Source of the DNA: Escherichia phage Ptacy1496
Length of the DNA stretch: 64,000 bases
Direction: 5' to 3' (one strand)
Sequence record: PQ863253.1
The stretch's first letter is position 1, and each line of letters opens with the position of its first letter. Below, piece after piece: positions 3,104-63,989 of the stretch. The position numbers and the translations under genes were made by a program. The notes beneath the pieces were generated by a model. That model was not told where the DNA came from, made no database searches, and was given only the letters and a program-made list of their open reading frames with translations.

Positions 3104-4522
3104 TTATGGATAGGTATAGATGATACCAGTTTCTAAAGCAGTTTTATGAATGATGTATCCATTACGCGATTCTTGAACATCAACTTCTGGATAGTCTTTC
3201 ATCATCTTCTGAAGAGTGTAACGATGTAGGTAATATTTACTATCTGGGTCGTCAGTTTTCCAATCTTTACCTTCTTCGGTCATTTTTTGGATTTCATCCA
3301 TAACCCACCAACCGCACCAGATATAAGCTGAAGTACGATGTGGAAGAGGATGAACATAAGGTAGTTCACCTTCTGGTTCTGGAGCAACTTTATCAGTTAC
3401 CTGAACTTGACCTTCTGCTGTAATAGTTTTGCTATCGTAATCAGTTGCAGTAACGACAGCAGTAACTTCAATAGTTTGACTTCCAACAGATGAGGTATCG
3501 ACAGTATATACGTTAGTTGACCCTTCTACAGGAGAAGAATCTTTCTTCCATGAGTAAGTAATTTGTGCTTCTTCTGGAGCACCCGTAACATTAGCCGTAA
3601 ATGTAGCCGGAGCATCTTGCTGAACATTAATAGAAGGAGGAGTCAATGTAACCTGTGGATTCATTGTCTTCTTATTAACTGTCAATGATACTTCATTAGA
3701 AGTAACTTCCTTTTCATTGTAATTTTCAGCAGTTACTTGGGCTACGCATTTAATTCTTTTTACTCCACTTGTAGTTGGAGTATAGCTAAATGTAGAGTTA
3801 GTTTCTCCACCAACTTGTGAATCATCTACATACCACTGATACGTAGCAGACGCTCCATCAGGTTGAGAAGCTAAGGCAGCAGTAAATTGAACTGGGGTTC
3901 CGATTACTCCCGCTGGAGGACTATCAGGAGTTACTGCCAAAGTAGTTGTCTGCGTCTTTTTATTAACAGTCAGTGACACTTCATTGGAAGTAACTTCCTT
4001 TGTATCATAATCTGTCGCGGTTACTTGAGCTACGCACTTAATTGTTTTAACTCCGCTTGCGTCAGGAGTGTAATTGAATGTAGTGCTAGTTGCTTCGCCC
4101 ACAGGAGAACCGTCAACGTACCATTGATACGTAGCGTTTGCACCTGATGGCTGTGAAGCTAAGGCAGCGGTAAATTCAATTGGAGTTCCAATCACTCCAG
4201 CATCAGGGCTACCAGGAGTTACTGCCAAAGTAGTTGTTTGTGTCTTATTTTGAACTGTGATAGTTGTACTAATTTCAGCTGTTTCAGGTTCAGATTCTGC
4301 AACTTGATTGGTTGCAACTACTTTAATAGTCTTTTGACCGGCAGGTCCTTTTAGTACATAACTAAAAGTTGCTGACGTTTCTTCCTGTGGAGCGTCGTCT
4401 ACAGTCCAAGCATATGTAATAGTTCCGCCTCCAGTTTCACCACTGGGTGTAGCAGTAAACTGCTTAGTTTCATCAATAACCCCTGTCGGTGTTTTAGGAG
4501 TTATATCAACTGTAAAAGTCAT
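3104..4522 (-). CDS. hoc: Highly immunogenic outer capsid protein Hoc, 472 aa variant with an additional Ig-like domain
   Basis: N- and C-terminal regions recognised as T4 Hoc (remembered as about 376 aa); internal tandem duplication of an Ig-like module. Confidence 0.9.
   Translation of the reverse strand: MTFTVDITPKTPTGVIDETKQFTATPSGETGGGTITYAWTVDDAPQEETSATFSYVLKGPAGQKTIKVVATNQVAESEPETAEISTTITVQNKTQTTTLAVTPGSPDAGVIGTPIEFTAALASQPSGANATYQWYVDGSPVGEATSTTFNYTPDASGVKTIKCVAQVTATDYDTKEVTSNEVSLTVNKKTQTTTLAVTPDSPPAGVIGTPVQFTAALASQPDGASATYQWYVDDSQVGGETNSTFSYTPTTSGVKRIKCVAQVTAENYNEKEVTSNEVSLTVNKKTMNPQVTLTPPSINVQQDAPATFTANVTGAPEEAQITYSWKKDSSPVEGSTNVYTVDTSSVGSQTIEVTAVVTATDYDSKTITAEGQVQVTDKVAPEPEGELPYVHPLPHRTSAYIWCGWWVMDEIQKMTEEGKDWKTDDPDSKYYLHRYTLQKMMKDYPEVDVQESRNGYIIHKTALETGIIYTYP
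3665..4250. repeat. Diverged tandem duplication (two units of about 290 bp) inside hoc encoding repeated Ig-like domains
   Basis: Two adjacent units align over their whole length, e.g. shared ...ccattgatacgtagc...gctaaggcagc(a/g)gtaaatt...ccaggagttactgccaaagtagttgt... Confidence 0.8.
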
Positions 4523-15619: not shown

Positions 15620-15627
15620 TTTGTGTT

Positions 15628-15680
15628 CCTCATGTTATGTCAGTAAGACTACTATAACACAACACGAGGGACTTGTAAAC
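15628..15680 (-). promoter_or_regulatory. Early promoter cassette (-35 GTTTACA, 17 nt spacer, -10 TATAGT); 53 bp, 52 of 53 identical to the alc promoter region at 30886-30938
   Basis: Direct comparison of the two segments in the sequence. Confidence 0.65.
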
Positions 15681-17737
15681 TACATCTTGAACTTTTTAGA
15701 CATTCCGTTGATGTTAACCAAAGAAGCTAAGATTTGAGAAACTTCGTTTTCCTCTTCTTTTGATTCTTCTACAAGGAATTGATTAAATCCAGCCATTGGA
15801 CGAACTTCACCAGTTTCCATTAGATGGTCGCCATCATATACTGATTCTTCTAATTGTTCAGAAGGAGGAACGATTGTACCTTCGATTAGATACTTGTTAT
15901 AAGCAGTTTCTTTCATAAAGTAAGTACTTACTTTATTAATCTTCAGTAAAATTCCACGTGGTAGAATAACTTCAGCTTCTGACGGAAATCCTGATAAATG
16001 ACCCGGAACGATAACTTTGATTCGCTCAGCTCCTTTAATTACCATACCCACGCTAGTTTCAGCATCTTCATTAGCATATGTAGAATGACTACCCATATGC
16101 ATCAAATCTTCTGCATCAACGGAACCTTCTCCTTCACCAGAAAATACTGCGCCGGAATCATCTAGAGCCATATAGTTTTTACCATGCTCACCGAAGATAT
16201 TTGGTTTAAGCGATGTGGATACGAAGTTCTTGAAATAGAACATTTTATTTTCAATGTTATGACGCAAAGTTTTAAAGGTAACTTCTTGTCCACGGTAAAG
16301 TGTAGTTCCTGGAGGAAGAACTGAACCTTTAGCGAATGCAGAATCAAGCGTCTCAATATGTTTAATAGCTCGTTCCATATATTCTTCACGGGTAGAATCT
16401 GGTTTACCCAAAAGGAACGAGTTCATTTCAACATATGAATCTGCACAATAATCTTCAATTACATCAGATTCAGCTTGAGTTAATCCTTTTGGAGTTACTT
16501 CAGTGCTTGCGTATTCATATGCCTGAGCAGCAGATTCATTAATCAATTTATAAATGCCATTCATGACAAATTGAATAATAGCTGTCTTTTCATCTGGCGT
16601 AGCTTTAGAACCTTTAACCAAATCATTGATAATTTTCTTAATAACATCAAAGCTATTAGAAATATTAATATCAGCAAGATCGCTTAAAATTTTATCAGTC
16701 TTATAATCAAAGAATTCTTTATTCTTTAAATATTCTTGAGAACCTTGATATGTTATATCGCTCTGTAACTTGATAAATGGATCACGTAAACGTGCATGGG
16801 CTAATGCAATATGATTTCGGAAGCTTTCGAGTTCATAATCACTAGATTTAAAACGAGAAGCGCTTCTCATACCGCCTATAGCTCCTTTGCTGAAGTTTGA
16901 ACCAATTTGAATAACGCCAGAGTTCATTGGTCCTTCTGCTTTATACACCGGAACTTTAGATTCAAACTCTTGATATTTCTTAGCAGCGAAGCTATCACCC
17001 TGAAGTGAAGCATCAACAGTAGAATATTGAGCTTGTGCTGCTAATCGACGACTAATTTTAGTTTTCTGAATAACAGCTTGGTCCGTGCGCTTATCATTTT
17101 CTAAAGCAATAGAAGCAGCAACAGCGACAGCTTTAGGAACAGCATTTCCTGTTTTAACGTCTACATAAACATCACCGACCTTTGATTCAACTTTTGTGAA
17201 TAACTCAGTTGAAATAGGAGGTACACCTGGAATGTCTTCTAAATTGGCATTTTTACGATAAACCATAATATATGCGTACTTTTTATCATAATCCCAGATT
17301 TCCTTTAAAAGAACATATCGACCTGCTCCTTTAGTACGTACTAAACGGTCAGCAATAACTTGCATTTGACGAGCAGCGCCATTTGTTTTACTCTTTAGTA
17401 CGCGGAATAAGCATGCATCAATTTTATACTGTTTCATTGTTTGAAGAGCAGTATCAAAAACAGCGTTAATGACGCCAATTGGATTTCCACCCAAGTTTCT
17501 AAGTTTAACCAGTGATAATTTCTCGTTGACACCTATCATTACGATATGCATCATTTTATCGCCCGGCTTAACGTTTTTATTTGTATCACCTCCAGAGGTG
17601 TATGTACAAAATCTAAATCCAGGAAGCACGCTTTCTTCGCCGGCTTGAATAGCAAAAATTTGAGGTATTTTATGCTTAGGATTTAAGTTAACAACCGGCG
17701 CCGAAGCGCCGTCAAATAATTCTGTAATAAGTTCCAT
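15680..17737 (-). CDS. Alt-like ADP-ribosyltransferase paralog (685 aa), tandem to alt
   Basis: N-terminal 230 aa and C-terminal tail closely similar to Alt; ART motifs retained (TLYRGQ, FYFKNFVSTSL, EAEVILPRG); central region divergent. Confidence 0.85.
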   Translation of the reverse strand: MELITELFDGASAPVVNLNPKHKIPQIFAIQAGEESVLPGFRFCTYTSGGDTNKNVKPGDKMMHIVMIGVNEKLSLVKLRNLGGNPIGVINAVFDTALQTMKQYKIDACLFRVLKSKTNGAARQMQVIADRLVRTKGAGRYVLLKEIWDYDKKYAYIMVYRKNANLEDIPGVPPISTELFTKVESKVGDVYVDVKTGNAVPKAVAVAASIALENDKRTDQAVIQKTKISRRLAAQAQYSTVDASLQGDSFAAKKYQEFESKVPVYKAEGPMNSGVIQIGSNFSKGAIGGMRSASRFKSSDYELESFRNHIALAHARLRDPFIKLQSDITYQGSQEYLKNKEFFDYKTDKILSDLADINISNSFDVIKKIINDLVKGSKATPDEKTAIIQFVMNGIYKLINESAAQAYEYASTEVTPKGLTQAESDVIEDYCADSYVEMNSFLLGKPDSTREEYMERAIKHIETLDSAFAKGSVLPPGTTLYRGQEVTFKTLRHNIENKMFYFKNFVSTSLKPNIFGEHGKNYMALDDSGAVFSGEGEGSVDAEDLMHMGSHSTYANEDAETSVGMVIKGAERIKVIVPGHLSGFPSEAEVILPRGILLKINKVSTYFMKETAYNKYLIEGTIVPPSEQLEESVYDGDHLMETGEVRPMAGFNQFLVEESKEEENEVSQILASLVNINGMSKKFKM

Positions 17738-17740
17738 GAT

Positions 17741-19789
17741 TTATCCTTGAACGAACTTGTAAGGCATGTTTGTAATATCTATGCAAGACGCAATAATTCC
17801 AAGAGATGATTCTACTTTCTGTTTAACATTTGATGAAACAAATGATGCAAAGTCAACTCTATCTTCTATATCACCTGTCATTGTAACTACTTCGCCGGTT
17901 TCCATTAAACGGTCACCGTCATAAATTACTGATTCGGTGAGTTCTTCGGTGGTCATAACTTCAGCTTGAATAAGCTTGTTGTTAGTTTTGACTGTTCCAT
18001 CATTGTAAGATGCATCAGTTATTTTATTAACTTTGACCATTAATCCACGTGGCAAAATGACTTCCATTTCATTTGAAGGCGCTAAACTTCCACCGGGTAA
18101 AACAACATTGACTTTATCAGCCCCAGTAATAACCCATCCAATTCCGACTAAATTATCGCTAGAATTAACAAGCCCTTCATCATTTTTATCGATAGAAATG
18201 TTTAGACGCTTTTCATCTGGTAAAACACCAACAGCTGAATCAGTCATCCAAGTACCAAAAATGTTTGGATATAATGATGTTGATACAAAATTTCTAAAAT
18301 AAAAAACTCGATTTTTTACCATTGCTTCGTATATTGAAGGTAACATTCGTTGTGAACGATACAAAGTAATACCTTTTGGTAATCGTTCACCATTTTTAAA
18401 GGCTGAATCTAAATTATCAATAGCTTTTTCTATGTCAGATGCTGTCAAAATACTTGTACGCTCATCTGGATTATATAATCCCAAAAGAGCATTATTTATG
18501 TCTACATATCCTGAACCTACGTATTCACGAATTCCGCGTTTTTGTGCTGGTGTGTATTTAGATGAATCTTTATTTTCGACTATAGGATGTAATGACCATC
18601 CAGCTGTAAGAGCATATCCACGTAATTCTCTTCGAATAATCTTTGTTTTTATTGCATTCCAAGAATTTTGTACTAACTCATTTGCAGCATCTTGGTTTAA
18701 ATGCGAATGTTTGTTAATATTTCTTTCAAACCAAGCACCTTTATATTTTTCTAAAGTATCATCGACGATAGAAGCAATAGTTTCTAAAGTTTTTATTGAA
18801 GTAATAGATTCTTTTCGTAATTTTTCTAAAGCTTTATTTTTTATTTCTGCATTAATAATGGATTCTTTATCTTCAGGAATTATAGAAGCTTCTCTGAATG
18901 CCATCCCAGCTGTAACATTGCTAAGAGCATTCTCTAGTGCAAATCCTGAAGTAGAAATTACCGTTAATTCATTAGAATCAGAAATTAAAGGCGCATCAGC
19001 GGGTTTATTTAATTCTGCTGCTGAAGCCTCAAATTTTTGAAACATCGGTGTTTCAAATCTAGAAGATTCCAATGACTGACTTTGTGCAATTGCTCTACGG
19101 GAAATTTTAACTTTAACGATTACAGCTTGGTCAGAACGTTTATCATTTTCTTGTGCAATAGATGCTGCAATTGCCTCATTTTTGGTTACTTGAGCTCCGG
19201 TATCTTTATTGATATAAACATCACCGACCTTCGATTCAACTTTAGTAAAGAGCTCGGTACTAATTTCCGGAACTCCTGGAATGTCTTCTAGTGATACATT
19301 TTTGCGATGTATAAGAATATATGCATACTTTTTATCATAATCCCAGAGTTCCTTAAGAAGGACGTATCTGCCACCTGAACGACTACGGATAAGTCTATCA
19401 GCAATAACTTGAATTTGTCGAGCTTGACCAGCGGTTTTAGACTTAAGAATACGAAGCATACAAGCATCAATTTTATACTGACGCATTGTTTGCATTGCAA
19501 CAGTAAAAACTGAATTGATATAATTAATTGGGCTTGGACCAAGACCTTTTAATTTAGCAATTGAACCTTTAGCGGTTAATGTAAAAGGAACAATATGCAT
19601 CATTTTATCGCCCATTTTTAAATCGCGATTAGTATCACCTCCAGATGTATAGGTACATAAACGAAAGCCTGGTTGTTCAATTGCATCATCAACATGAACT
19701 GAAAAAATTTGCGGTATTTTCTTCTTTGGATTTAAGTTTGTAATCGGAAGAGTAGTATCTTCGTCAAATAATTCTGTAATAAGTTCCAT
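17741..19789 (-). CDS. alt: Alt, head-packaged ADP-ribosyltransferase
   Basis: 682 aa from second ATG (better RBS spacing); recognised as T4 Alt; R-S-E type motifs (LYRSQ, FVSTSL, EMEVILPRG). Confidence 0.92.
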   Translation of the reverse strand: MELITELFDEDTTLPITNLNPKKKIPQIFSVHVDDAIEQPGFRLCTYTSGGDTNRDLKMGDKMMHIVPFTLTAKGSIAKLKGLGPSPINYINSVFTVAMQTMRQYKIDACMLRILKSKTAGQARQIQVIADRLIRSRSGGRYVLLKELWDYDKKYAYILIHRKNVSLEDIPGVPEISTELFTKVESKVGDVYINKDTGAQVTKNEAIAASIAQENDKRSDQAVIVKVKISRRAIAQSQSLESSRFETPMFQKFEASAAELNKPADAPLISDSNELTVISTSGFALENALSNVTAGMAFREASIIPEDKESIINAEIKNKALEKLRKESITSIKTLETIASIVDDTLEKYKGAWFERNINKHSHLNQDAANELVQNSWNAIKTKIIRRELRGYALTAGWSLHPIVENKDSSKYTPAQKRGIREYVGSGYVDINNALLGLYNPDERTSILTASDIEKAIDNLDSAFKNGERLPKGITLYRSQRMLPSIYEAMVKNRVFYFRNFVSTSLYPNIFGTWMTDSAVGVLPDEKRLNISIDKNDEGLVNSSDNLVGIGWVITGADKVNVVLPGGSLAPSNEMEVILPRGLMVKVNKITDASYNDGTVKTNNKLIQAEVMTTEELTESVIYDGDRLMETGEVVTMTGDIEDRVDFASFVSSNVKQKVESSLGIIASCIDITNMPYKFVQG

Positions 19790-19812
19790 CATAGCCTCTC
19801 TAGTGTTTATTC

Positions 19813-23730: not shown

Positions 23731-23770
23731 AGTATTTTCCTCAGTAAGGGGCCGAAGCCCCTGTTTTATT

Positions 23771-24136
23771 TTAAATATCAAATTCGTTAAGAACTACATC
23801 AAAGATTGCTTCAAGATGCTCAGGTTTAGCTCTGTTACTCAAAATATGACGAATCCAAGTTTTAACCAGAAGCTTACGATTAGCGCCATTCCAGCAAGGA
23901 TGGGTCCCTAAATCGCGTTGACGAAAATCATCATCCAGAGCGATTTTGAAGTTTGAACCTTCCATTGTGATTGAAACCGTGATGCCATTTTCAAATCGCA
24001 TATAAACGTAGTTAGGAGTCATATACTGTTCAATTTCGCATACTGATCCATTTTGATGTTTCCAAAGGCAAATAGTATCAATAGAACCTGCAATACCATT
24101 AGAAACATATTTACGTTCAAAGTTGATGTAGTTCAT
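23771..24136 (-). CDS. Hypothetical protein, 121 aa
   Basis: ORF. Confidence 0.55.
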   Translation of the reverse strand: MNYINFERKYVSNGIAGSIDTICLWKHQNGSVCEIEQYMTPNYVYMRFENGITVSITMEGSNFKIALDDDFRQRDLGTHPCWNGANRKLLVKTWIRHILSNRAKPEHLEAIFDVVLNEFDI

Positions 24137-30880: not shown

Positions 30881-30885
30881 AAAGT

Positions 30886-30938
30886 CCTCATGTTATGTCA
30901 GTAAGACTACTGTAACACAACACGAGGGACTTGTAAAC
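30886..30938 (-). promoter_or_regulatory. Early promoter of alc (-35 GTTTACA, -10 TGTAGT-like); near-identical copy of 15628-15680
   Basis: 52 of 53 identical positions with the cassette upstream of the alt.-3-like ORF. Confidence 0.6.
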
Positions 30939-40342: not shown

Positions 40343-40688
40343 CTACATTGTTTTCGTCAACAATGCAGTGAATTTTTGTTACGCCAGAAACCTTGTCTTT
40401 AACTTCATCCTCTTCAGAAGTCGGTTCTTTATATTCGCGGAAACAATAAAACTCTTCTTCACTAAGTTCAAAATAATCATCACCCATACCATCATCATTA
40501 TAGATTTCACCATTAGCACAAATGATTTCGGTTACATAATCAAAGCCATCTAAACTTGATATTGATTTAACTTCAAACCAACCACCATTTTCTTGAATGA
40601 TGCCGACCATACTAGCATTTGATGAACTAATATCAATGAAAGATTTAATACGATGTGGATTTAACTCGTATTTTTTGCCGATTTCCAT
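40302..40688 (-). CDS. Hypothetical acidic protein
   Basis: Start placed at ATG 40688 with GAGG RBS. Confidence 0.5.
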   Translation of the reverse strand: MEIGKKYELNPHRIKSFIDISSSNASMVGIIQENGGWFEVKSISSLDGFDYVTEIICANGEIYNDDGMGDDYFELSEEEFYCFREYKEPTSEEDEVKDKVSGVTKIHCIVDENNVDEIIELLRKTFKA

Positions 40689-40733
40689 TTTGATTTTCCT
40701 CATTTTAATAGGGGCTTGATAGCCCCTTGATAA

Positions 40734-40964
40734 TTATTGTTCAATCAGTCCCATGTAAAATTCTGCGTCTTCAGAATCCATGCCATCACAATATTCATTA
40801 GCCATAAAGCGGGTGAGGTCTTCAAGAGGACCTTCAATGACAATAGAAAAATTGCAATAATTGGGATCATCGTGAATACTTGTGATACTAAGTTCAGGAT
40901 AACGATTACGAATAATTTCTTCAATATATTCAAAATCAACGATGTCAATATCAACTTTAGCCAT
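40734..40964 (-). CDS. Hypothetical protein, 76 aa, expressed from promoter cassette at 40999-41087
   Basis: Start at MAKVDIDIV with GAGG RBS directly downstream of early promoter. Confidence 0.55.
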
Positions 40965-40998
40965 ATTATTTTCCTCTTTAATTATCAGCAGTATTGCC

Positions 40999-41087
40999 GA
41001 TAGTTGTATAGTACAATGGAATGACAAGGATGTAAACCGTTTTGTGAAAAAATTTTTGAAATAAAAAAGGGGACCTCTAGGGTCCCC
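40999..41087 (-). promoter_or_regulatory. Terminator plus early promoter cassette (PeSL-like): GGGGACC stem-loop with U-run, A/T-rich UP region, -35 GTTTACA, -10 TACTAT
   Basis: Hairpin at 41069-41086 terminates gene 32 transcript; promoter motifs with 17 nt spacer; about 57 bp identical to 58268-58340 outside the spacer. Confidence 0.65.
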
Positions 41088-41109
41088 AATTAATTAGTAA
41101 TATAATCTA

Positions 41110-42015
41110 TTAAAGGTCATTCAAAAGGTCATCTAGGTCCGTGTCATCAGCACTAGATGAACTGCCAGAGCTTGAGCTCATAAAATCATCTTCAGTTTTT
41201 GTATTGAAGTCATCAACATTGAATGCATCCAAATCATCAGCAACTTTATCAGCTTTCTTAGCAGCAGTTGCAGCAGCACCGCCCATCACAGCAGTTCCCA
41301 TAACTTGACCGAATTTAGTATTCAGTTCTTCAAATGATTTGAATTTATCTTTAGAAGTCATTTCAGAAAGGTCAACCATTTGTTCGAACAGTTCTTTCTG
41401 GAAAGATTCATCATCAATGTTTGGAATCGCAGATTGATTCAGGAATTTAGATTCATCGTAGTTACTAAATCCGGAAACTTGTTTAACTTTCAGTACAAAG
41501 TTAGCACCTTCCCACGGACAAGTTACATCAACCGGAGTTTCACCCATTTCAACATCAACCGCAATCATTGCATTGATTTTATCCCAGATTTTCTTACCGA
41601 AACGATATTTAAATACTTTACCTTCATTTTCTGGAGCAGCTGGGTCTTTTACAACAAGAATATTAGCCCAGTAAGAAGTTTTACGTTTAACAAGACTGTA
41701 CTCTTTATTGTCAGTGTTGTACAGATCATTTTTACTGATGTACTGACATACTGGGCAAGAATCGTAATCACCATGGGTAGATGAACATGTTTCAATATAC
41801 CATTTACCATTTTTCTTGAAACCGTGATTTACAAGAATTGCGAATGGTGCTTGTTCATCATTTTTAGACGGAAGAAAACGAATTACTGCTTGACCGTTAC
41901 CCGCATTATCGAGTTTCAGTTTCCACTCGCCTTTATCTTCAGAAGAAAAACCTTTATTGCCATTCAGTTTAGCCATTTGTGCAGCAAGTTCAGCAGTAGA
42001 TTTACGTTTAAACAT
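41110..42015 (-). CDS. 32: Single-stranded DNA-binding protein gp32
   Basis: 301 aa; recognised as T4 gp32 including acidic C-terminal tail. Confidence 0.96.
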
Positions 42016-42095
42016 TTTATTTCCTTTTTAATTTAATTTAATTTAATTTAATTAACAGTTGGTGCTATGACACTTTACCTCATAGCTGGCATAAT
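42016..42095 (-). promoter_or_regulatory. Gene 32 autoregulatory translational operator: (UUAAA)n unstructured tract plus upstream pseudoknot-forming region
   Basis: mRNA-sense AAUUAAAUUAAAUUAAAUUAAA directly 5' of the 32 RBS, preceded by GUGCUAUGAGGUAAAGUGUCAUAGCACC. Confidence 0.75.
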
Positions 42096-42712
42096 TCGCA
42101 ATACTCTGGGTCTTCGAGAGGTATCCAACCTAAGTTGAAATACTTTACCATCGATTTAGCAGTTGTATCAGTTATATTTATATTACCTTTAACTCTTCGC
42201 CATCCAGGAGTTTTACCGTACAGATTAGAGGATAATAATAACACATAATTCTCGTAAGCAATATGAGATAATTTCCAAGACTCTATATTAGCTCGTGATG
42301 TTTTCCAAGGTCTAAAATCGTCACGGTTCATATAATTAGCCAATCTCATATGCTCTCTAACTTCCGGGTCTTTGGCTGGATGAGTTTCACCACTCACACC
42401 AAATCCACCACCAGCATATACCAGATTAAAATAGTCTGGATTATCTCTTGCATTTACTTCAAGTTGGTATTTTCGTTCTGCTTCAATAACATCCAAGTCA
42501 TCATCAATTTGAATTATTTTAACGCTCGGTTTTTGAAGCATTAGCGCATTCAAAAATCTTTTTTGTTTACATGAGCTCCAGTATTCCTTTCCGGAAGAGT
42601 CATATATTATTCCGTTCTCAAATGAGCAATTTAATTTACTACCGATATAATAGTATGGCGGAGTCTTATTTTTGACACGGTCTTCAAATGTAAACCAATA
42701 TACTATATTCAT
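42080..42712 (-). CDS. segG: GIY-YIG homing endonuclease (SegG-like)
   Basis: 210 aa; N-terminal GIY-YIG-like motif (IVYWF ... YYIGSK); position between 32 and 59. Confidence 0.7.
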   Translation of the reverse strand: MNIVYWFTFEDRVKNKTPPYYYIGSKLNCSFENGIIYDSSGKEYWSSCKQKRFLNALMLQKPSVKIIQIDDDLDVIEAERKYQLEVNARDNPDYFNLVYAGGGFGVSGETHPAKDPEVREHMRLANYMNRDDFRPWKTSRANIESWKLSHIAYENYVLLLSSNLYGKTPGWRRVKGNINITDTTAKSMVKYFNLGWIPLEDPEYCELCQL

Positions 42713-57259: not shown

Positions 57260-57895
57260 TCACAGTTCAGATGCTACAGTGATTACAGCTTCAATGTTTT
57301 CTGCCGAGCGTTTAATGTCAAGATACACATTACCGTTTTTAGCGATTTTACATGACATTCCGATATCAGTAAATTTCTGAATATGATGTTCCATCATTTT
57401 GTATCCAAAAATTCGCATATTTCCATTATTGTTAATTTCAAAATTACGAATTCCGTGAGTGCGTTTTTCTAAAATGGCAAGATAATTACTACGATAAGTT
57501 TCAACCTTTTTAAGAACAAATCCATTTTCATCTAAAAGTTTTAACATGAGGTCTTTATCTTCTTCCATATCAGAAGTAATCTCACGAGCTTTACGAGTTG
57601 CTCGTTTTTTCAGTAGTTCCGGAGCATTTTTCTGCGCGTATAAAGTTGCTGCGTTTGAAATAATATCTTGAGCTTCACCTGTAATGATTAATCCATCACC
57701 AGATTTCTCCACCAGGCCTTTTTTAATCAATACCCCAATATTACTATTAACTACTGCGTTACCTAAATCTGGATGCACCTCACGAACTTCTGCGGCTGTA
57801 ATGAAATCTTTCTTAGCAATAGTAATTAAAATCGCAGCAGTTTTTTCATTCAGAACATCGTTAGAAGCTTTGATGATGTAAGTCACTTTAGACAT
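57260..57895 (-). CDS. motA: Middle transcription activator MotA
   Basis: 211 aa; recognised as T4 MotA. Confidence 0.93.
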   Translation of the reverse strand: MSKVTYIIKASNDVLNEKTAAILITIAKKDFITAAEVREVHPDLGNAVVNSNIGVLIKKGLVEKSGDGLIITGEAQDIISNAATLYAQKNAPELLKKRATRKAREITSDMEEDKDLMLKLLDENGFVLKKVETYRSNYLAILEKRTHGIRNFEINNNGNMRIFGYKMMEHHIQKFTDIGMSCKIAKNGNVYLDIKRSAENIEAVITVASEL

Positions 57896-57931
57896 TTTAA
57901 TCTCCGTTTCAGTTCATTTATTTGATAGGTC

Positions 57932-57960
57932 TATAGTATCATGTTTAAAGCAGAAGTAAA
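57932..57960 (-). promoter_or_regulatory. Early promoter for motA (-35 GTTTAC, -10 TACTAT)
   Basis: Motifs with 17 nt spacer; leader CTATCAAATAAATGAACTGAAAC shared with promoter at 58268-58340. Confidence 0.6.
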
Positions 57961-57999
57961 CACTTTTTGCACTCTTTTTCAAGAGCTCTAATAAAGTAC

Positions 58000-58227
58000 T
58001 TACTTAATGTTCAGATTACGAACTTCGATTTCGTCTTCATGGGCAAAATCAAACTGTTTGAATTCTGTGTCACCTTTAAATTTAAAAATCATTGTGAAGA
58101 AAGTCAGAACACCAGGTTTTTCTTCACGAACTCCACAGATATCATATTCAATACCATCTACAACCAGTTTGTTAGCAGTCAGAGCATTTTTAGCTTTAAC
58201 GATTTCGTTTTCGATTTTAAATTTCAT
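58000..58227 (-). CDS. Hypothetical protein, 75 aa, in its own promoter-terminator cassette (motA.1 position)
   Basis: ORF with GGAG RBS directly downstream of cassette at 58268-58358. Confidence 0.6.
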   Translation of the reverse strand: MKFKIENEIVKAKNALTANKLVVDGIEYDICGVREEKPGVLTFFTMIFKFKGDTEFKQFDFAHEDEIEVRNLNIK

Positions 58228-58267
58228 TTTTTGTATCTCCGGGTTGTTTGTTTCAGTTCATTTATTT

Positions 58268-58358
58268 GATAGTTGTATAGTACCACAGTATGCTTTGGTT
58301 GTAAACCGTTTTGTGAAAAAATTTTTGAAATAAAAAAGGGAGAGCCGAGGCTCTCCCT
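58268..58358 (-). promoter_or_regulatory. Terminator (GGGAGAGCC stem-loop plus U-run) and early promoter cassette (PeSL-like), paralogous to 40999-41087
   Basis: About 57 bp identical to the gene 32-downstream cassette outside the 17 nt spacer, including gatagttgtatagtac and tgtaaaccgttttgtgaaaaaatttttgaaataaaaaaggg. Confidence 0.65.
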
Positions 58359-58362
58359 AAAA

Positions 58363-58512
58363 TTACTGCATGACTGTGATAACTGTCATGATAACACGTT
58401 GAATTCCGAACGCAAGAAGACCTCCTGCTACGGCAGGAACAACACCTAAACCCGCCAGTAAAATGCCACCAGATACTAATGCAGCGCTTGTGATACCAAT
58501 GAATGGACTCAT
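58363..58512 (-). CDS. Small hydrophobic protein, 49 aa, start overlapping the gene 52 stop (ATGA)
   Basis: Hand translation MSPFIGITSAALVSGGILLAGLGVVPAVAGGLLAFGIQRVIMTVITVMQ; GAGG RBS; Gly-zipper-like TM segment. Confidence 0.55.
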   Translation of the reverse strand: MSPFIGITSAALVSGGILLAGLGVVPAVAGGLLAFGIQRVIMTVITVMQ

Positions 58513-61389: not shown

Positions 61390-61632
61390 TTTCTGTTCCT
61401 CCGTAGTTGATAGGGTAATAGTACCACGGAAGAACAGTCTTGTAAACAACTTTTTTAAAAATATTCGTAATAAATGTGAATACCAATCACTACTGCCGAA
61501 ACTTGTGCAACCCACCATGCACACGCAATAAGTACAGAATTCAAAATTTTCATAATAACCTCATCACAAAAGTAAATGTTAAACAAATTACTGGAATACT
61601 AATTAACCAAACAAAACACCAACATAATGAAC

Positions 61633-61896: not shown

Positions 61897-61970
61897 TTTT
61901 ACTCCTCCGTAGCTGATAGCTGTATAGTACCACGGTCCTTGTGGTATGTAAACTGTTTTGTGAAAATTTT

Positions 61971-62805: not shown

Positions 62806-62822
62806 CAAAAGGGCCGAAGCCC
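62806..62822 (-). terminator. GGGC-UUCG-GCCC hairpin followed by U-rich tract on minus strand
   Basis: Inverted repeat plus UUUUGUUUUAAGG downstream on minus strand. Confidence 0.5.
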
Positions 62823-62827
62823 TTATT

Positions 62828-63022
62828 TTATTTGAATTGTGCAATTCTTTTCTCTAGACATTCAGCATAAGATTTCATTGAGATAAACTGCGAAAGTAAC
62901 AGTTCTTGCTCAACTGCATTAACTGTTAGAAACTTTGCGCTTTCTAAAAATTTGCTCAGTGCATTAATTTTGAGCATTAATTGATCGTATTCTTCTTTTA
63001 CTCGTGCTTGATAACCTAACAT
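62828..63022 (-). CDS. Hypothetical protein, 64 aa
   Basis: ORF preceded by GAGG RBS and GGGC-UUCG-GCCC hairpin. Confidence 0.5.
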   Translation of the reverse strand: MLGYQARVKEEYDQLMLKINALSKFLESAKFLTVNAVEQELLLSQFISMKSYAECLEKRIAQFK

Positions 63023-63050
63023 AATTTTCCTCAGTTAAGGGCCGAAGCCC

Positions 63051-63989
63051 TTATTTAAATTGTTCAGTAACGTCTTCAACTACTTCGTATTGGCAGGTAC
63101 GCATTTTAGCATCGTTGTAATCAATCGGAATTGATACTACATCACGCGGATGTACTTTAACTTTTACAACTCGGCTAGTTGAACTGCCAAAGTGACGAAT
63201 ATAAGATTTAGAACACACATGCAGACCGCGAGAACAAGTTTGTGTATCATCGTCATTCACACGAGTACGTGGCATTTTAACTACTTTACCAGGGCTGTTA
63301 TCAAAAGTATTTGAATGACAGTCAAAGTAATTACTGCGAACTACTTTCCAAGCATAGAAGTAACCGTCTTCTGTAATTTCAATATCGTTTGCTACCAAGA
63401 AATCAAAGAGTCGAGATACCGCTTTTTGGCTTGGGTTTTCCAACAGATTTTCCAAGAACGGAAAATAGAATTCAAAGTTTTCGCCTTTTTCCATCGAGTC
63501 AAGAATACGATCAACCAAACCAGATCGCAATTCAATATTTTGATAGAACAAGCTTCCACCTTCAATTCGAACATCGCCGGAAATATATTTTTCAACAGCG
63601 CGACGAACATTAATTTTTTGTGCCGCTTCTTCCAACTTATCCGCTACAAGCAGATTAAGAATTTCCTGGAAGTTTGAATGAGTATTAGGAGTTGCGTTAT
63701 AAGTTACACCGTCAACAGTAATTGAAATGAATTTTTTAGATGCATTCCAAATAATGTCAGATTTAGCAACTGGAGCAATAACTACATCGCTATTAACTTT
63801 AACTGTAATATCACCGCTAATAGTAACTTTAGAGCGTTTAGCTTCTTCAGCATTTTTCAAAACACGACGGATTGTGTCAACCGATACACCTTGCCAATCA
63901 GCCAATTCCTGTTGGGTGTAATTACCACTTGAATACAGCTTAACAATTTCAGCTTGTTCGTTTTTGGTCAGGCATTTAATATTGTACAT
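63051..63989 (-). CDS. rIIB: RIIB, rapid lysis / exclusion protein
   Basis: 312 aa; recognised as T4 rIIB. Confidence 0.93.
   Translation of the reverse strand: MYNIKCLTKNEQAEIVKLYSSGNYTQQELADWQGVSVDTIRRVLKNAEEAKRSKVTISGDITVKVNSDVVIAPVAKSDIIWNASKKFISITVDGVTYNATPNTHSNFQEILNLLVADKLEEAAQKINVRRAVEKYISGDVRIEGGSLFYQNIELRSGLVDRILDSMEKGENFEFYFPFLENLLENPSQKAVSRLFDFLVANDIEITEDGYFYAWKVVRSNYFDCHSNTFDNSPGKVVKMPRTRVNDDDTQTCSRGLHVCSKSYIRHFGSSTSRVVKVKVHPRDVVSIPIDYNDAKMRTCQYEVVEDVTEQFK

Follow-up and report, generated by a model that had tools for sequence, protein, structure and literature searches.

Two related cassettes lie between genes on the minus strand of the 64,000-nt stretch of Tequatrovirus DNA analysed here (Escherichia phage Ptacy1496, PQ863253.1; hereafter the window), and its early genes are read from that strand. 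Copy 1 is intergenic between same-strand ORFs, with the stop of gene 32 at 41110 on one side and the start of frd.3 at 40964 on the other. Its 5' neighbour, gene 32 (41110..42015, minus), is a 301-aa ORF for the single-stranded DNA-binding protein. A 701-nt query covering the gene 32 3' end and the cassette (40600-41300) shows 95% identity with T4, whose annotation has gene 32 at the corresponding place, and the copy 1 region is 95–96% identical to T4, RB27 and AR1, in which the genes are 32, frd.3 and frd.2. The transcription terminator of T4 gene 32 belongs to the classical literature on that phage. Here, a terminator scan returned the hairpin GGGGACCCTAGAGGTCCCC (41069..41087, minus; 7-bp stem, 5-nt loop), which folds as RNA at −14.3 kcal/mol and is followed directly on its 3' side by a run of six Ts (41063-41068). 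Both hairpin and T-run are identical in T4, and the gene 32 terminator of PST and T2 has the loop/stem variant GGGGACCTCTAGGGTCCCC. A terminator 3' of gene 32 is kept in five of six T4-like genomes (Nolan et al. 2006, PMC1524935).

The end of the copy 1 stem, the T-run, an A/T-rich UP-like tract and the −35 sequence GTTTACA together form a 41-nt block (41031..41071). A consensus scan placed a promoter, TTTACA-N17-TACTAT, at 41036-41008. Its 17-nt spacer, TCCTTGTCATTCCATTG (41014..41030), is a variant of the type called E below in which the TGn extended −10 motif is lost: the promoter scan found TTG, not TGG, before the −10. Judged by its sequence, a promoter without the extended −10 may be weaker than the TGn form. 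A G, the −10 TACTAT (41008-41013) and the start region ACAACTATC make up a further block of 16 nt (40999..41014), and the cassette ends in a Shine-Dalgarno sequence and start codon, AAAGAGGAAAATAATATG. The ORF on its 3' side, frd.3 (40734..40964, minus; 76 aa), matches Pfam family PF05798 (Phage_FRD3, E=6e-38) and has the same position in T4. In the available portion of a recent preprint (bioRxiv 10.1101/2024.04.04.588121), frd.3 RNA ranks with the most abundant of the T4 RNAs that carry an NAD cap, which suggests a transcript with a primary 5' end at the copy 1 promoter; that portion gives no mapped 5' end for frd.3 RNA. Between frd.3 and frd.2, a G+C-rich stem-loop (GGGGCTATCAAGCCCC, 40705-40727, minus; −12.9 kcal/mol, z = −3.1) has no T-run on its 3' side and is therefore not a canonical terminator. 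On the other side of gene 32, a 210-aa ORF (42080-42712, minus) between genes 59 and 32 has the place and length of the T4 SegG homing endonuclease; a Pfam search returned no match for it. T4, PST and pSe_SNUABM_01 have such an ORF, and T2, T6, KIT03 and SH7 lack it. A tie between this ORF and the kind of spacer carried at the gene 32 locus was considered and rejected, with no link among eight genomes.

Copy 2 lies 17,269 bp upstream of copy 1 on the same strand and is likewise intergenic, between the stop of a motA.1 homologue at 58363 and the start of a 75-aa ORF at 58227. Phage AV119 matches the region at 100% identity, and the corresponding T4 genes are 52, motA.1 and motA. Identified from the ORF list and the T4 annotation, the motA.1 homologue (58363..58512, minus) encodes a 49-aa hydrophobic protein and lies 3' of gene 52 and 5' of copy 2; phage records label it variously as a putative membrane, periplasmic or hypothetical protein. 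The copy 2 hairpin from the terminator scan, AGGGAGAGCCTCGGCTCTCCCT (58337..58358, minus), has a 9-bp stem (AGGGAGAGC-CUCG-GCUCUCCCU), folds at −21.1 kcal/mol (z = −5.5) and is followed by a T-run. Its 41-nt block (58300..58340) carries the −35 at 58300-58305, the consensus scan gave the promoter TTTACA-N17-TACTAT at 58305-58277, and the spacer is ACCAAAGCATACTGTGG. The 16-nt block (58268..58283) has the −10 TACTAT at 58277-58282, with TGG before it, and ACAACTATC again as the start region 3' of the −10; a Shine-Dalgarno sequence and start codon, CCCGGAGATACAAAAAATG, close the cassette. The 75-aa ORF (58000..58227, minus) is followed by motA (57260..57895, minus), which encodes the 211-aa activator of middle transcription and is 96% identical in DNA to T4 motA. 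A Pfam search returned no match for the 75-aa ORF or for motA.1, and PHROGs matches were to families of unknown function only (phrog_10955 for the 75-aa ORF). In phage JS10 (L008, 1780-1885), the place of motA.1 is taken by a small hydrophobic ORF (MSLGVEFLLL...) that has no annotation and ends in a hairpin-T-run terminator on its 3' side, just 5' of the first promoter of the ORF module discussed below.

Aligned without gaps on the minus strand and anchored at TTTACA, the two copies are identical at 70 of 91 positions. The 57 identical bases of the preliminary description were recovered as one run of 41/41 nt (CCCTTTTTTATTTCAAAAATTTTTTCACAAAACGGTTTACA; 41031-41071 = 58300-58340) and one of 16/16 nt (GTACTATACAACTATC; 40999-41014 = 58268-58283). 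Both copies show the order that it had listed, of terminator, A/T tract and early promoter (−35 GTTTACA, −10 TACTAT), and each is followed by a small ORF (40734-40964, 76 aa; 58000-58227, 75 aa). The hairpins, which it had counted within the repeated sequence, proved to have non-homologous stems, the copies becoming homologous from the final CCC of the stem onward. The 17-nt spacers, TCCTTGTCATTCCATTG and ACCAAAGCATACTGTGG, are also non-homologous, and TTTTTTATTTCAAAAATTTTTTCACAAAAC is found in both copies. A 38-nt core, searched with up to three mismatches, occurs at two sites in the window and at none in 100 dinucleotide-preserving shuffles. At the T/C site of the A/T tract (TTTYAAAAA), both T4 copies read T and both window copies read C. 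Concerted evolution at this site was considered and dropped; copies 1 and 2 were concordant in five of eight genomes only.

Such likeness could be purely functional, with strong early promoters kept near one optimum by selection and no recombination or mobility involved. The extended consensus of T4 early promoters does go beyond the hexamers (PMC2988021), and the loci of both cassettes do not vary among the eight T-even genomes examined. However, over the 51 nt of the upstream block copies 1 and 2 reach 88% identity, as against 29–60% in the other pairs among ten early-promoter-like sites in the window, so that the likeness exceeds generic promoter hexamers, to which the preliminary description had allowed that it might be limited. 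The spacer and junction data given below tell further against selection by itself.

These two cassettes are members of a larger family. A recent duplication within the Ptacy1496 genome does not account for them: T4 has both at the same two loci and with the same long identity. Nor is the family one of two copies, since three to four members were found in the window and six in T4. A third window member, TTTCACAAAACAGTTTACA-N17-TACTATACAGCTATC (61924..61952, minus), came from a repeat search and lies between denB and the next ORF. It is 78% identical to copy 2 over 59 nt, is the counterpart of the T4 promoter at 167085 and has no strong hairpin, its weak stem folding at −5.2 kcal/mol (z = −0.4). 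The same search gave a looser fourth member in the ndd hyperplastic region (61418..61446, minus; 63% to copy 2). Copies 2–4 thus sit in the variable motA-ndd-denB region, and copy 1 and the 43>imm.1 member adjoin core replication genes. A census of T4, run on the sequence beyond that equivalent to the window itself, listed six tight members, 32>frd.3, motA.1>motA, denB>ndd.6, nrdC.11>nrdC.10, >e.8 and 43>imm.1, under promoter names that follow the GenBank annotation. Pairwise, the six are identical at 53–74 of 95 nt, and all contain the motif TTTTCACAAAACNGTTTACA-N17-TACTATACAACTATC. Across 542 phage records, a 126-nt query found about five matching places per genome. Scanning metagenomes with the family pattern returned 29 stretches, on T-even contigs, and each of three full-length metagenomic T-even contigs (~167–168 kb) had four to five strict matches; a scan of IMG/VR with the 37-nt core gave five stretches only.

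Several other repeats were seen in the window. An unrelated pair of early-promoter cassettes (15627-15680 and 30885-30938, minus) is 98% identical over 54 nt, GTTTACAAGTCCCTCGTGTTGTGTTA(T/C)AGTAGTCTTACTGACATAACATGAGGA, running from the −35 to the Shine-Dalgarno sequence with a different ORF 3' of each. At three intergenic sites (23746-23788, 62808-62850 and 63024-63061), a T-run adjoins a hairpin of the pattern GGGCC-GAAG-CCC (GGGGCCGAAGCCCC, GGGCCGAAGCCC); by their sequence, these hairpins apparently represent another small family of terminator-like repeats. A tandem duplication at 3666-4241 (288-nt unit, 77% identity) presumably corresponds to repeated protein domains in a structural gene, and two paralogous genes are suggested by direct repeats at 17541-17740 and 19590-19792, some 2 kb from each other (158 nt at 72% and 31 nt at 97%).

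The hairpins themselves could serve mainly in RNA stability or processing, for instance in protecting the 3' end of gene 32 mRNA, with their adjacency to promoters being incidental. Their stems are unrelated in sequence, a strong G+C-rich hairpin with T-run precedes only three of the six T4 members, and the further G+C-rich stem-loop after frd.3 (~40705-40727) lacks a T-run. Against this, a T6 run follows immediately on both hairpins, and both copies show the intrinsic-terminator pattern of a G+C-rich hairpin with a T-run at once after it; the copy 1 region has one site of this pattern and the copy 2 region three, compared with 0.4 expected from shuffles. Moreover, in the available portion of the work on promoter-early stem-loop (PeSL) elements of RB49 and phi1, their stem-loops terminated as strongly as rrnB T1 (PMC2839356). 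We consider a role chiefly in RNA stability highly improbable and regard both hairpins as candidate terminators. An Rfam scan of the whole window gave no family at gathering score.

The clearest variation among T-even genomes concerns the promoter spacers. We denote the loci by letters (A, gene 32; B, motA; C, denB; D, nrdC.10; E, e.8). Each of loci B, C, D and E carries its own 17-nt spacer throughout the genomes examined, one or two base differences being allowed. Locus A, in contrast, is polymorphic, with four types, and each common form is the spacer resident at another locus of the family. A B-type spacer (ACCAAAGCATACTGTGG) is found at locus A in OIWM17 L020 and ERZ483 L044 (metagenomic) and in RB14, a C-type (TACCACAAGGACTGTGG) in SH7 and OBRH9 L024, a D-type (AGCATAAAGCTTTATGG) in T4 and KIT03, and an E-type (TCCTTGTCCTTCCATGG) in T2, T6 and PST and, with two changes, in the Ptacy1496 window. 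When the 126-nt form of each type was searched at 95% identity or above, it was represented by 61 (B), 59 (C), 80 (D) and 251 (E) records, of about 500. In T4 coordinates, the putative donor loci are from ~17 kb to ~76 kb or more away from locus A. The base at −37 (G, T or A) travels with the spacer in some cases and not in others, and this inconsistent co-transfer fits conversion tracts of variable length.

Since identical 17-mers at different loci are not a product of convergence, and the conserved flanks can act as homology arms, the spacer polymorphism at locus A indicates, as read from these sequences, ectopic gene conversion. Selection on strong promoters gives no account of identical 17-nt spacers at different loci in different phages, nor of the module junctions inside the cassette described below; given the spacer swaps, a purely selective origin of the likeness appears largely refuted, and we rate it as having very little chance of being correct. 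We put forward only tentatively, and consider somewhat doubtful, the broader proposition that the six T-even cassettes are a dispersed, concertedly evolving family in which locus A has been converted repeatedly from four or more ectopic donors and the spacer behaves as a swappable module. Swapped spacers could possibly tune promoter strength or regulation. The available portions of the PeSL literature (PMC2839356, PMC4122927) contain no mention of whole-spacer swapping or of a hotspot at the gene 32 locus.

A different kind of exchange is seen at copy 2. The preliminary description took the ORFs downstream of both copies for recently acquired cargo. For frd.3 (40734-40964) this does not hold: T4 has it in the same position behind gene 32, and so do 487 of 523 matching phage records. 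It does hold for 58000-58227, a variable ORF within a module that is ~98% identical to JS10. In T4, T2, T6, PST, KIT03, SH7 and pSe_SNUABM_01, the promoter runs straight into motA and the 75-aa ORF is absent from the interval between motA.1 and motA; the ORF is present in ~137 of ~540 Tequatrovirus-like records (at least 95% protein identity). A three-way alignment with T4 and JS10 delimits a 387-bp leader-ORF-promoter-leader module of Dhakavirus JS10 type (57886..58272, minus). It includes a second, JS10-type early promoter, TTTACT-N16-TACTAT (57933..57960, minus), directly 5' of motA and preceded by a weak stem-loop (57971-57986). It also includes a 36-nt direct repeat (57906..57941, minus; repeat family D10), 92% identical to 58250-58285, and this pair brackets the cargo ORF. 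Compared with JS10, the module has 379 identities, seven mismatches and three gaps (~97–98%), as against 74–76% in the flanking genes 52 and motA. Left of a CTATCAA junction in the transcription-start region, the window is 97% identical to T4 and 49% to JS10; the right junction is AAAATGTCTAAA at the motA start, and from the motA start codon on the window is T4-type again. The junctions fall in stretches of 7 and 12 nt that are common to donor-type and recipient-type cassettes.

The slot between gene 52 and motA is old. In Dhakavirus JS10, the 75-aa ORF is flanked by two near-identical promoter-plus-leader repeats, and in Moonvirus Merlin a homologue of the ORF occupies the same slot, preceded by a module-type promoter. 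These phages would be compatible with ancient, fixed paralogous promoters and a loss of the ORF in T4-type phages, the window lineage having acquired nothing; two promoters with a common leader flank the ORF and would permit its deletion. However, a module that is ~98% identical between genera within flanks at 74–76% requires a recent transfer. Of the two promoters, the left one is of T4 type and the right one, with its leader, of JS10 type, the hybrid expected from an import, and the T4 motA leader is family-typical, with no deletion scar of a JS10-type leader. The protein identities of the ORF also fall into two bands, at least 95% or at most 80%, with nothing between. Loss from T4-type phages is thus quite unlikely. 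By these comparisons the module is the product of a recent inter-genus transfer, one crossover lying in the start region of the promoter and the other at the ribosome-binding site and start codon. Transfer was probably from a Dhakavirus-like donor to Tequatrovirus; a module-type promoter also precedes the Merlin homologue.

As a route of entry, the PeSL mini-circle was considered and rejected: it predicts a recipient-type second leader, and the leader observed is donor-type up to the motA ATG, so that a double crossover is needed. A search of 50,697 phage records for a precise excision between the 36-nt direct repeats gave no such product. A T4-type promoter joined to a JS10-type leader and motA had no single-piece match, the best being two-piece matches at occupied sites. 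Salmonella phage Melville (Gelderlandvirus; L010, MF957259.1, 48094-48330) has a 61%-identical homologue of the 75-aa ORF adjoining a putative nucleotidyl transferase, not between gene 52 and motA. With a homologue located elsewhere, the family of this ORF has moved between loci as well as between genera.

Altogether, we propose, with a probability of roughly 85%, that both copies are T-even terminator plus sigma-70 early-promoter cassettes of the PeSL class which double as homology arms for recombination. In this proposal, a Rho-independent terminator would close the upstream unit, gene 32 at copy 1 and gene 52-motA.1 at copy 2, and a strong sigma-70 early promoter would restart transcription, into frd.3 or into the 75-aa ORF and motA. 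The promoter would consist of the A/T-rich UP-like tract, the −35 GTTTACA, the 17-nt spacer, the −10 TACTAT and the conserved start region; the T-run of the terminator would double as the distal part of the A/T tract, and T-run and tract together probably form an UP element. T4 early promoters have been described as 'uber' UP/−35/TGn/−10 promoters (Hinton 2010, PMC2988021). For both copies, promoter and terminator activity is predicted from the consensus scans, the T4 literature and the experiments on PeSLs, which, in the available part of the source, concern RB49 and phi1 elements only (PMC2839356).

As members of a dispersed family of near-identical cassettes of ~90 bp (six in T4), the copies would be long dispersed repeats in a highly recombinogenic phage and could serve as homology arms in two ways. 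Ectopic gene conversion between members would produce the whole-spacer swaps at the gene 32 locus, and small ORF modules would be exchanged through junctions inside the cassette, as with the JS10-type module after copy 2. We infer this recombination role because of the spacer and module data and because T4 recombines efficiently at short homologies (PMC9391042). Against assignment to the PeSL class stands the setting of copy 1, which lies in a non-hyperplastic cluster of replication genes with a conserved downstream gene.

The kind of element is already known, and the same loci carry it in T4, so that no new kind of element is revealed. Rather, the results chiefly bear out what was already known, that T-even terminator/early-promoter cassettes insulate small early genes and serve as portable homology for shuffling. 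Two clear illustrations are added at the level of sequence: a 387-bp promoter-ORF-promoter module transferred between genera, with junctions legible to within a few bases, and a population polymorphism in which the spacer of one promoter is overwritten by those of four paralogous promoters. Both cases are possible natural markers for the rate of ectopic recombination in T4-like phages, and they call for caution in annotating 'novel' ORFs beside such cassettes.

With T4 early promoters in general, for which the consensus is that of Liebig & Rueger 1989 and Wilkens & Rueger 1996 (reviewed in Hinton 2010, PMC2988021), the cassettes share the GTTTACA −35, the TGn and TACTAT −10, an A/T-rich UP-like region and extra conserved positions, and T4 itself has the same promoters 5' of frd.3 and motA. 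They differ in forming a six-member subfamily (53–74 of 95 nt) far closer than the general consensus demands, and copy 1 of the window lacks the TGn. Lambdoid morons, which are promoter-ORF-terminator insertions, resemble the module after copy 2 in that a small ORF brings its own transcription signals. Morons enter by non-homologous recombination and have a deviant G+C content (PMC1524935), whereas the entry points here are homologous regulatory repeats and the composition appears phage-like; with junctions in shared stretches of 7 and 12 nt, the moron class was rejected for the ORF module.

The closest relatives are the PeSLs of Arbiol et al. 2010 (PMC2839356), a class to which Comeau et al. 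2014 (PMC4122927) added the PST/T4 pair, and we compare the cassettes with the available portions of both papers. The comparison with mobile regulatory cassettes of T4-type phages made in the preliminary description is upheld to that extent, both copies matching the published class. In each, TTTACA-N17-TACTAT agrees with the PST/T4 PeSL consensus TTTACW-N17-TAYWAT (PMC4122927), and a stem-loop upstream of the promoter is one of the published PeSL subclasses. The shared architecture comprises an intergenic stem-loop terminator, an A/T-rich tract, a sigma-70-like early promoter, a Shine-Dalgarno sequence and a start codon, in a multicopy element conserved over ~100 bp that adjoins small ORFs differing between close relatives. 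A link to indels and replacements is also shared, with an ORF module at copy 2 that is absent from T4 and, at copy 1, a replaced spacer and unchanged gene content. PeSLs differ in that copy 1 is placed beside replication genes and the conserved frd.3, and in that ORF exchange here needs a double crossover, their authors having proposed a mini-circle route. One published example (Comeau 2014, Fig. 6A; ndd.4/.5 versus ORF268/269) comes from the denB-ndd region, in which the third and fourth members here also lie. In addition, internal-protein genes of T-even phages are shuffled at the conserved regulatory sequences on either side of them (Repoila et al. 1994, cited in the available part of PMC4122927); at another locus, small early genes are replaced there, too, by recombination in the flanks that hold the promoter and ribosome-binding site.
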